This document shows positions 26,511-30,089 of a stretch of DNA of 64,000 bases, piece after piece. The position numbers and the translations under genes were made by a program. The stretch comes from Octopus vulgaris (taxonomy: Eukaryota). Location of the stretch: NCBI GenBank assembly GCA_951406725.2, contig OX597823.1, positions 75,330,001 to 75,394,000 of the forward strand, written 5' to 3'. Under the pieces are notes generated by a model, which did not search any database, had not been told where the DNA came from, and saw nothing but the letters and a program-made list of their open reading frames with translations. Within the stretch, counting starts at the first letter, position 1. Each line of letters begins with the position of its first letter.

Positions 26511-26940
26511 ATATATCTATCTATATATCTATGTATATATGTATATATATATATATATATATATATATGTGTGTGTGTGTGTGTGTGTGTGTGTGTGTGT
26601 GTGTGTGTGTGTGTGTGTGTGTGTGTGTGTGTATGTGTATGTGTATGTATGCATATATGTATATATATGTGTGTATGTATATGTATGCATGCCTTTTAAT
26701 ATATATATATATATATATATATATTACGTTATATTTCTATATGTATGTGTGAGAGAAATTTTTGTCTCATAATGTTGTAGGAAGAATTCGGCCACATGGT
26801 AATAAGAGTGCTGTTCCTTTGTGTCGTTGCGTGCCTCTCCACATGTGCGTAGAGAAATGGTCAGTAGAAAGTCTTATATATATATATATATATATATATA
26901 TATATATATATATATATATATTTATTTATTATATAGAAGG

Positions 26941-26991
26941 AGCTTCTACAGGACTAGAACTGTTTCATTCAAGAGAAATCTTCAGGAAGCT
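26941..26991 (-). ncRNA. Type I hammerhead ribozyme, inverted identical copy
   Basis: Exact reverse complement of 29341-29391. Confidence 0.85.
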
Positions 26992-29340
26992 AGTTAACAA
27001 GAATTGTATTGGCATTTATACATTTAGGCAGGTTTAAAGGGGTGTTGGTGGGGGACTTTTTGGGGGTAGGCATAGCGCAAAGTATCATACTTGGGGGAGT
27101 GGTCAAGGAGTCAGGGTTAAATTAGATAGAAGAATAAATAAAAAAATAAATAAATACATAAAAAAATAAAAAAATAAAAAATAAAATATATATATATAAA
27201 AAAAGGGGAAATAGAGTTTTAGGTAAATAAGGAGATTCTCACTTATACCTATGCACATATGTATACATATATACACACACATACAAACATATATACATAT
27301 ACATACACACATACATACACACACACATATATATACACTTACACATACATATACATATCTACACATACACATATATGTATACATATACACACAGAAAAAT
27401 TTATATACACATACACACACATATATCCACACACACACATGCACACACAGCAGCACATTAGTCCCTATATACACATATATACACATACACACATATATAC
27501 ACACACATATACATACATATATATATATATATATATATATATATATATATATATATACACATATATATATACACATGTGTACCTATGCTTACCTCCACAT
27601 ACACAGATACAAATACAGACCCATTCCCTAATTTTAATTTTATTATCTTCGGTTTATTACTTTTGTTATCTTTGGCCGCTCGGTCACAAACATCTTGGCT
27701 ATGACAGCCTGTCCATTTATCTGTCTACTGGAAAACAAGCCCTCATTCACTCACGCGCACTTTTTAGCACGTACACTCACTCATTCGTACACTCATACAC
27801 ATACACGTACGCACGCGTTATATTCATACATACATACATCTACATACATTCACGTATATACACATACGTACGCGTACCTACAGATTCATGTCTACACTCT
27901 TAGAAGGCTAGTCTATACATATACACCAATAAATATAAATACACGCACATATATATACACCTACATACAAATACATACATGTATACATATATATATATAT
28001 ATATATATATATATATATATATTCACATATATATACACATATATACACACACACATATATACATATATATACACACATACACACATATACATATATATAT
28101 ACACACACATACACATACATACATATACACACATACACATACATACGTATACATACATCCATACATCCATACATACATACATTTATACACATACACACAC
28201 CCACATACATACATATATATACGCGCATATATATATATATATATATATATATATATTCATACACACACATACATATACATACATACATATACAAATATAC
28301 GCACACACTTACATATATACTCATATACACATACACGCACATACACATGTACATGCGTACCCAAACACACACACACACACGCGCGCATCCATATATACAC
28401 ATAAGTACACACATGCGTAAAAGTATACATATATCTATGCTTACACATACACACACACACACGCGCCTCCTTATATCCATACTTACATGCATACTCAAAA
28501 AATAAGTAAATAGTAAAATATATATACGCGCAGTTATTCATACATGCATACTCAAAATTTAATAATAAATATTAAGTATATGTACGTGCAGTTACCTATT
28601 ATATAGACATAATAAAATAAAGATAATAAAGATAATAAAATTAAAATTAGGGAATGGGTCTGTATTTGTATGTGTATATATATATGTGTGTATGTGGAGG
28701 TAAGCATAGGTACACATGTGTGTGTGTGTGTGTGTGTGTGTGTGTGTGTGTGTGTGTGTGTGTGTGTGTGTGTGTGTGTGTGTGTGTGTGTGTGTGTGTG
28801 TGTGTGTATGTATGTGTGTATATATGTGTGTATGTGTATATATGTGTATATAGGGACTAATGTGCTGCTGTGTGTGGATATATGTGTGTGTATGCGTGTA
28901 TGTTTGTGTATGTGTATATAAATTTTTCTGTGTGTATATGTATACATATATGTGTATGTGTAGATATGTATATGTATGTGTAAGTGTATATATATGTATA
29001 TATATATGTGTGTGTATGTATGTGTGTATGTATATGTATATATGTTTGTATGTGTGTGTATATATGTATACATATGTGCATAGGTATAAGTGAGAATCTC
29101 CTTATTTACCTAAAACTCTATTTCCCCCTTTTTTATATATATATATTTTATTTTTTATTTTTTTATTTTTTTATTTATTTATTTATTTTTTTATTTATTC
29201 TTCTATCTAATTTAACCCTGACTCCTTGACCACTCCCCCAAGTATGATACTTTGCGCTATGCCTACCCCCAAAAAGTCCCCCACCAACACCCCTTTAAAC
29301 CTGCCTAAATGTATAAATGCCAATACAATTCTTGTTAACT

Positions 29341-29391
29341 AGCTTCCTGAAGATTTCTCTTGAATGAAACAGTTCTAGTCCTGTAGAAGCT
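29341..29391 (+). ncRNA. Type I hammerhead ribozyme, intact core
   Basis: AGCTTC-CTGAAGA-t-TTC[tctt]GAA-t-GAAAC-AG[ttctagtc]CT-GTA-GAAGCT: perfect 6-bp stem I, 4-bp stem III, GUA triplet. Confidence 0.85.
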
Positions 29392-30089
29392 CCTTCTATA
29401 TAATAAATTAATTTTACTCTGCTATGTATTGAGTACCTTATTTACTGTGGTTAACCCCGAATCAACCCGGGACCTACATATATATATATATATATATATA
29501 TATAGAGAGAGAGAGAGAGAGAGAGAGAGAGAGTGAGAAGAAAAAGCATATTTACTAGTAGGAAGTTTGCTTTTAAACTAAAGTTTTCCTTACTTAGCGT
29601 TTTTACTTCAATATATCGCTCTACGGAAATTCTTTACTCTTTTGTAGCATGAAATATGGGAGATGTTTCACATTTAAAAACTACTGGTTTCAAATTTTTA
29701 GCCACATAATTCAAATTAGAGGCACATAGAAGTATTCACTGACATACGACAGTACATATTATATAAATATAGCTTTAAAATTCTAACACCTTAATTATTG
29801 TTCATTAATGCGTTTGAATATCTAACATGGTTAATCTTATTTATATTTGGCATGATTTATATTAAATGATAAGTGCTATAGAAAGATGTTCAATAAATTA
29901 GATTGTGATGGGTACGACTATTGATAAAACATCTACAATATTAATAGTTACTACTTAAGGCACAAGGTCTAAACTTTGTGGGGAGGGGACTAGTCGATTA
30001 CATAGACTCCAGGATTTAATTTATCGACACCGACATTTTGAAAGTCAAAGCCGATCTGAGAACGTAGAGACGGGTGAATTACCTATTAC

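Follow-up and report, generated by a model that had tools for sequence, protein, structure and literature searches.

How two identical hammerhead ribozyme motifs, facing outward, came to lie near the two ends of an inverted stretch of largely simple-repeat-like DNA is the question raised by positions 26924-29477 of the Octopus vulgaris sequence considered here (GenBank assembly GCA_951406725.2, contig OX597823.1, positions 75,330,001 to 75,394,000 of the forward strand; this stretch of 64,000 nucleotides is referred to below as the window, and coordinates are those of the window). A first-pass annotation took the locus for a mobile RNA whose hammerheads may be active as monomers and whose body would seed microsatellites. 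The evidence reviewed here makes it highly probable that the locus is a recent insertion of the non-coding end of a Penelope-like element (PLE), in an inverted arrangement that has already been described for PLEs. Copies of PLEs are reported to show an inverted 5'-truncated copy, a one-sided tail and a bias toward microsatellites (PMC8557442), and the same layout, with pseudo-long terminal repeats (pLTRs) of ~200 bp (193-218 bp), capture of host DNA and mobilization in trans by pLTRs alone, is also on record (PMC3846280).

The locus has the structure of a PLE-type insertion, in that a longer copy is accompanied by a 5'-truncated one in inverted orientation and by a tail (Table 1). The inverted copy adjoins the 5' end of the longer one, as it does at a second locus in the window (copy 2, discussed below); a tail is found at one end, a type I hammerhead lies in a pLTR-like module near the 3' end, the target is AT-rich, with (TA)23 and (AT)13 flanks, and the sequence is dispersed and multi-copy as far as positions 29193-29472 are concerned, the remaining body being known from two loci. 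Outward-facing hammerheads together with a one-sided tail on an inverted copy are the standard form of a PLE insertion (PMC8557442, PMC3846280), a resemblance that the first-pass annotation missed. The only unusual trait of the locus is the ~1.3 kb of simple-repeat-like DNA within the copied stretch. The arms have the lengths first proposed for them (~730-780 bp), and their unique blocks are indeed near-identical, with 212/1, 57/1, 35/0 and 78/1 matches/mismatches (the last with one gap); over the whole arms there are 706 matches, 39 mismatches and 7 gaps, with the differences, including those in tract length, mostly inside repeat tracts. Beyond this shared sequence the right arm has a further 69 bp (29409-29477), absent from the left arm, whose short end corresponds to 29408.

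The two hammerheads are identical, as had been claimed. The pattern of core plus stem III occurs twice in the window (29347-29385 on the + strand and 26947-26985 on the - strand), and 0 of 100 shuffles gave two matches. In the right-hand motif the invariant type I core (CUGANGA, GAAA and UH; 29347-53 and 29366-69) is combined with a stem I of 6 bp (29341-46/29386-91), a weak stem II (29354-65) and a stem III of 4 bp, counting A15.1-U16.1 (29369-72/29381-84), with a predicted cut 3' of 29385; stems I and III and the cut site are thus read as they were at first. Loop III carries the palindrome CTAG, and a palindromic loop 3 is a trait of PLE hammerheads (PMC4209133).

Table 1. Features of the inverted insertion, its flanks and the second copy, in window coordinates.
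Feature	Position	Strand	Basis
Left target tract, (TA)23	26875..26920	.	sequence
Long copy: repeat-like body, unique blocks, pLTR-like module, short tail-less 3' end	26924..28400 (read ~28400 down to 26924)	-	homology to right arm and copy 2
Left inverted arm, 726 bp	26924-27649	-	arm alignment
Type I hammerhead motif, identical to the right one	26941..26991	-	pattern match
Largest unique body block; 89.6% to 58728-59050	27605..27937	-	alignment
Degenerate dinucleotide body, interruptions common to copy 2	27940..28400	-	score 501 vs best control 356 of 213 windows
Head-to-head junction region with short internal duplications (28484-28500/28541-28557 and 28616-28630/28625-28639)	28400..28628	.	
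Inverted 5'-truncated copy (right arm), 780 bp	28629..29408	+	arm alignment
(TG)45 tract; left arm holds (AT)20 at the matching place, 27517	28717..28806	+	arm alignment
pLTR-like 3' module, ~209 bp, highly repeated in public runs	29200..29408	+	contig coverage
Type I hammerhead motif	29341..29391	+	sequence, pattern match, fold
Hairpin overlapping predicted cut site, competing with hammerhead fold, -6.1 kcal/mol	29382..29400	+	predicted fold
One-sided 69-bp tail, family sequence rather than flank	29409..29477	+	contigs reach ~29466-29472 in 4/4 runs
Right target tract, (AT)13 then (AG)15	29478..29533	.	sequence
Copy 2 inverted partner arm, running into 100-N gap; 317 matches, 2 mismatches to + arm	57860..58390	-	alignment
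Copy 2, diverged (~90%), without hammerhead, ends in (AT)23	58384..59908	+	alignment

Public sequencing runs show that the 3' part of this insertion belongs to a large family. Among the 24 runs listed for 29081-29480, which come from 11 studies and bear several organism codes, 21 contain part of the stretch. Coverage over 29081-29900 was followed in four runs, all of them contigs (X21, X16, X3 and X7, of which X3 is only guessed to be RNA), with 29081-29204 and 29467-29548 skipped as repeats; two runs recorded as RNA held 0.12-0.14 of the words and were left out of this analysis. The block 29193-29472 is covered in all four runs (1329, 120, 244 and 5 contigs over the whole stretch). In X21 the flank at 29549-29900 is represented by one contig of depth 7.3, with 3 differences in 352 nt, and the block reaches a summed depth of 8e4-8e5, which means an estimated hundreds to thousands of copies or more of 29193-29472, allowing for up to 31-fold overcounting by overlapping contigs. 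The same flank has no coverage in X16, X3 and X7, which says nothing about the insertion in those samples. Loose contig ends at 29406-29412 enter (TA)n in 4/4 runs, matching the end of the left arm (14 X21 contigs run off into (TA)n at 29408), and the tail is likewise covered in 4/4, so that both ends of the element are natural ends of the family. Hammerhead block and tail, for which copy number within 29081-29477 had been in question, are therefore highly repeated, with both ends seen. Variants at a frequency of at least 5% are absent from 29340-29400 in all four runs, with 10 substitutions and 1 insertion in 29205-29339 and one variant at 29401. No joint going back, of the kind expected of a circular or tandem form, is seen in the contigs over 29081-29900.

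In three runs there are also loose ends before 29341, at which other upstream sequences are joined to the hammerhead; this suggests a hammerhead common to several families, or a clustering of truncations at this place. In X21 five such ends have a consensus that corresponds to the core in reverse complement, which is what a fold-back junction would produce, and a junction of this kind may lie before stem I at an AGCT palindrome.

The repeat-like body is represented a second time in the window, ~30 kb away. Copy 2 is collinear with the long arm, with 89.6% identity over a 326-nt unique block and ~94% in shorter blocks. The first-pass annotation had described a collinear unit of ~1.7 kb; the homology reaches ~28363, which supports ~1.45 kb of the long arm and not the full 1.7 kb, and the hammerhead is missing from the second copy. 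The unit had also been called mostly degenerate dinucleotide repeat, which holds in that 55% of 26920-28610 lies in purine/pyrimidine-alternating runs (18% for the window), whereas pure runs of at least 6 units make up 9%. Similarity extends into this degenerate sequence, since the score of 27940-28400 against 57860-58400 (Table 1) also exceeds the best of 100 block shuffles (381). For 27255-27570 the score is 222, below the best control windows (281), and the stretch is anchored only by the unique blocks that flank it. The head-to-head layout recurs at the copy 2 locus with other breakpoints, and the extra A of copy 2 at the equivalent of 29270 is a family variant in 4/4 runs. As the arms are near-identical within each locus while the two loci are ~10% apart and differ in breakpoints, the alignments suggest two independent insertions of related templates, both of which would have carried the body. 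On the same grounds, together with the different flanks, it is very probable that the repeat-like body was copied as part of the unit. The existence at 26924-29477 of a retroposed, hammerhead-bearing element is supported. Pure tracts vary between arms and between loci, as seeding would predict. It is likely that the template RNA was a hammerhead-bearing pLTR end of ~200 bp with 1.25 kb or more of repeat-rich sequence upstream of it.

Two further observations concern these copies. The second head-to-head inversion (57860-58750), of the same family, lies beside a 100-N gap and could be an artefact. Just upstream of the pLTR-like module there is a T-rich, (T6A)n-like tract (29130-29200 and 59690-59830), about twice as long in copy 2, which resembles an A-rich tail when read from the other strand.

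A Pfam scan of 131 stop-free stretches of the window (of 240 of at least 55 aa that passed a complexity filter) returned one RVT_1 match (56353-57657) and two mariner pieces, and no GIY-YIG domain; an open reading frame (ORF) combining reverse transcriptase (RT) and GIY-YIG, as an autonomous PLE would have, is absent from the element and from these stretches, and may exist elsewhere in the genome. The hammerhead does not open an ORF in the way it does in the Anolis element, as the ATGs at the hammerhead and tail give 4 and 2 codons. The body is somewhat better explained as captured host DNA of a non-autonomous family than as the long 3' region of a coding PLE. The second possibility, a special case of PLE insertion, would make both arms 5'-truncated copies of an autonomous PLE with a long repeat-rich 3' region or a retained intron, with no separate non-autonomous family, and it is a credible if less expected account. 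Heavy 5' truncation is typical of PLE copies (PMC8557442), and the intron of Drosophila virilis Penelope ends at the 5' strand of helix I (PMC4209133), the strand inside which the TAG at 29340-29342 ends here, though an RNA starting at 29343 is predicted to lose stem I. Within the 1.7 kb of the long arm there are 4 donor-like sites, as compared with a background rate of 0.5 per kb, though GT-rich repeats inflate such matches, and one of the sites recurs at the corresponding position in each of the three copies (27592 on the - strand, 28700 and 59110 on the + strand), which is weak evidence. The absence of an ORF at the hammerhead or tail is unlike what is described for the Anolis and Adineta elements (PMC11167929, PMC3846280), and no spliced joint occurs in the contigs over 29081-29900, a stretch that excludes the donors.

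A quite different history would start from a solo pLTR in a microsatellite-rich locus that was later duplicated and inverted at the DNA level, as a local segmental duplication whose body was never a mobile RNA. That the sole other body copy seen lies 30 kb away in the same window would fit this, as would the repeat-like stretch 27255-27570, which aligns no better than controls. The history is nonetheless improbable, given that the loci are ~10% apart while arms within each are near-identical in unique sequence, that breakpoints and flanks differ, that the ends of the insertion correspond to the two end classes of the family, and that the extra A of copy 2 is one of the variants of the family.

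The fold of the hammerhead was examined by secondary-structure prediction, without Mg2+ or tertiary contacts. The motif had been called intact, which fits the core and stems I and III but is overstated for the whole; in stem II a U-U pair replaces G10.1-C11.1 and is followed by 3 bp, with a stability of -0.1 kcal/mol. In the isolated 51-mer stem I forms with P 0.98-0.99 and stem III with P 0.54, and the exact active fold has P 0.018. Stem I is retained (P 0.79-0.98) in RNAs that start at 29300-29341 and end at 29391-29395, and is lost when the RNA reaches 29400 (P 0.01-0.04 for RNAs that start at 29300 or 29335 and pass this point; P 0.02 within 29330-29405), because the hairpin at 29382-29400 takes the cut site. 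A dimer fold through the loop III palindrome is predicted at -24.6 kcal/mol, as against -14.6 for two monomers. The weak stem II, the blocking hairpin and the more stable dimer make activity as a monomer, which the first-pass annotation had envisaged, doubtful. Models of the RNA suggest that co-transcriptional, dimeric or protein-assisted cutting would be likelier than cutting as a monomer, any cleavage probably being limited to a brief co-transcriptional window, to dimers or to protein-assisted conditions. By analogy with the Anolis PLE, which in vitro can do without its protein-dependent hammerhead (PMC11167929), cutting need not be required for mobilization. Searches with Rfam gave no hammerhead, either over 29200-29480 at E<=10, where there were 2 irrelevant matches, or among the 150 matches listed, of 235, for the whole window, which were to microRNA and small nucleolar RNA models, fell mostly on simple repeats or hairpins and were all below the gathering threshold. 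A scan of metagenomes for the core pattern gave 50 loci that were rejected as relatives and judged chance matches, as stem I exceeded 2 bp in 0/50 and none had a BLAST match to the element.

For the long double-stranded RNA (dsRNA) that had been proposed for read-through transcripts, the predicted arm duplex has -400 kcal/mol over 209 bp. Such dsRNA would follow simply from any inverted repeat, and it would conceal the ribozyme, which in read-through RNA is predicted to pair with its own antisense at -118.5 kcal/mol; since the two motifs lie on opposite strands, a single transcript never carries two sense ribozymes. Editing of repeat-derived dsRNA is general in animals.

These properties also bear on whether the locus could derive from a retrozyme-like RNA, which would cleave itself as a monomer, circularize and replicate as animal non-LTR retrozymes do. 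A type I hammerhead without coding capacity, the predicted formation of stems I (P 0.98) and III (P 0.54) in the isolated 51-mer and the proposal that retrozymes are PLE derivatives (bioRxiv 10.64898/2026.07.22.740005, PMC7229834) would agree with such an origin. It is nevertheless highly improbable, as the two motifs of the window are on opposite strands and form no head-to-tail tandem, the unit exceeds 1.45 kb as against the reported 51-972 bp (bioRxiv 10.64898/2026.07.22.740005), the fold has a weak stem II and is lost once the RNA passes 29400, and the contigs contain no joint going back. A permuted tandem unit, proposed from an 11-nt match between the sequence following the hammerhead and the junction at 28598-28608, was rejected when 42 of 660 control windows scored equally. 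An assembly or read fold-back artefact, the least credible explanation of the inversion, could appeal to the trouble that such structures cause assemblers (PMC8557442) and to the copy 2 inversion, which abuts a gap with arms 99.4% identical, but here substitutions, indels and the type of tract set the two arms apart, the tail is on one arm only, each arm ends at a natural family end, and the locus contains no N and has flanks unlike each other.

Several points weigh against the identification of the locus as a PLE insertion, or against parts of it. No PLE protein is present among the 131 stretches scanned, and no ORF begins at the hammerhead or tail. There are no direct pLTRs in partial tandem, only inverted copies being present at this locus; a target-site duplication is unreadable inside the (TA)n flanks; and the tail, at 69 bp, is twice the usual 30-40 bp. 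The G10.1-C11.1 pair that is missing from stem II is highly conserved in PLE hammerheads (PMC4209133). The link between body and hammerhead rests on two loci of the window and is weakened by copy 2, which lacks the hammerhead and adjoins an assembly gap, and the junction at 28400-28630 is taken from the assembly. Summed contig depth is no copy number, and the higher depth over the hammerhead makes the 5% threshold harder to reach there, which weakens the contrast in conservation. No publication was found that describes such a family, which may be contained in repeat libraries (Repbase, Dfam, the library of PMC13282606).

For the favoured PLE insertion a mechanism can be proposed that draws largely on the Anolis PLE, which in vitro cuts and extends both strands at AT-rich DNA and has two internal RT start sites that bound the tail near an AC-rich stem-loop (PMC11167929). 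A PLE protein with RT and endonuclease activities, supplied in trans, would cut an AT-rich (TA)n tract, as the flanks suggest. Reverse transcription of the non-coding RNA would then start near its 3' end, at 29408 or at ~29477, giving one end without and one with a tail; the two corresponding end classes are seen in public contigs, and their attribution to start sites is conjectural. Two prematurely ended cDNAs, or one self-primed fold-back, would be joined head to head, leaving the hammerheads outward. Short proto-repeats would afterwards slip independently in each arm, where tract differences are observed and the timing is presumed. The short end lies 8 nt behind the hairpin at 29382-29400, and the tail end 6 nt behind a small predicted hairpin with an AC-rich loop; that such hairpins, 6-8 nt before each end, set the RT start sites is a guess. 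A more ambitious version remains speculative and is, on balance, unlikely. It sees a high-copy non-autonomous PLE parasite with a body largely of degenerate dinucleotide repeat, which inserts in (TA)n and delivers dozens of proto-microsatellites per jump, in which cleavage by the hammerhead would stop after a conserved hairpin that overlaps it has been transcribed, and in which this and another hairpin 69 nt downstream would set the two RT start sites.

The locus itself is one more inverted insertion of PLE type and matters modestly. It is a clean, young example in which both ends match two family-wide end classes, its arms show microsatellites diverging from one template, and its hammerhead and tail show conservation among runs that bear different organism labels. 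If the body is multi-copy, repeat annotation that begins by masking low-complexity sequence would have overlooked a mobile family, and some of the microsatellites of the host would stem from a retroelement; if the high-copy parasite exists as described, a sizeable share of the genome's simple repeat would be unannotated retroelement.

Other repeats of the window were noted in passing. At 55590-57760 (+) there is a 5'-truncated fragment resembling a long interspersed nuclear element (LINE), presumably of CR1/L2 likeness, which contains the RVT_1 domain in a 435-aa frame (56353-57657, E 4e-24), is preceded by frameshifted pieces and by a 4-kb degenerate (TA)n tract (51420-55590), and terminates ahead of the N gap with a short tandem repeat and (TA)n. 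Mariner transposase remnants occur at 3997-4353 (+; HTH_48, E 5e-19) and 6202-6900 (+; partial DDE, E 2e-5). A CTGATGA word at 5616, in the right arm of a ~120-bp hairpin (5517-5640), possibly marks a small fold-back insertion with a decayed hammerhead, and an inverted repeat around a central (TA)n at 62572-62924, with a near-perfect hairpin at 62666-62830, may be a fold-back insertion or a miniature inverted-repeat transposable element.

Among known systems, the locus most resembles the insertions of endonuclease-bearing PLEs (Penelope/Poseidon, Neptune, Nematis and Hydra clades; PMC8557442, PMC3846280, PMC11167929), with which it shares the head-to-head inverted 5'-truncated copy, the one-sided tail, the type I hammerhead near the 3' end, a module of the size of a ~200-bp pLTR and the AT-rich/(TA)n target. 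It differs from them in that no ORF is seen, the tail measures 69 rather than 30-40 bp, a direct pLTR tandem is lacking and a repeat-like non-coding body of at least 1.25 kb is present; without a protein it cannot be assigned to a clade. For Octopus vulgaris, 31 PLE families with recent activity are on record (PMC13282606), and 235 hammerhead loci have been described from the giant squid (PMC6962438). Capture of host DNA by pLTRs in Adineta vaga, with Pen1 spacers of 0.9-1.5 kb and mobilization of sequences lying between solo pLTRs (PMC3846280), likewise places unrelated non-coding DNA of similar length next to a pLTR end; the Pen1 spacers vary between copies, whereas here the same body is found at two loci ~10% apart, as in a stable subfamily. 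With the minimal type I hammerheads of metazoan PLEs (PMC4209133, PMC6765202) the motif has in common the invariant core nucleotides, the palindromic loop III and a predicted preference for dimers, while its stem III is longer (4 bp, with an 8-nt loop), its stem I has 6 bp, its 3-bp stem II lacks G10.1-C11.1 and its fold is predicted to be blocked by an overlapping hairpin downstream. The non-LTR retrozymes of animals (PMC7229834, bioRxiv 10.64898/2026.07.22.740005) are similarly non-coding, carry a type I hammerhead and are probably mobilized by PLE proteins, but they form head-to-tail tandems of short units that yield circular RNAs, in contrast to the dispersed inverted pair and much longer unit seen here. 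Finally, microsatellite seeding by RTE elements in Lepidoptera (PMC2887409) and by CR1-L3 in snakes (PMC8303610) provides a parallel in which repeats spread with a retroelement and then change in length; those repeats are short and lie at the 3' ends of LINEs, whereas in the present element the degenerate tracts are internal and numerous, and the PLE-type unit that carries them has (TA)n as its target as well.

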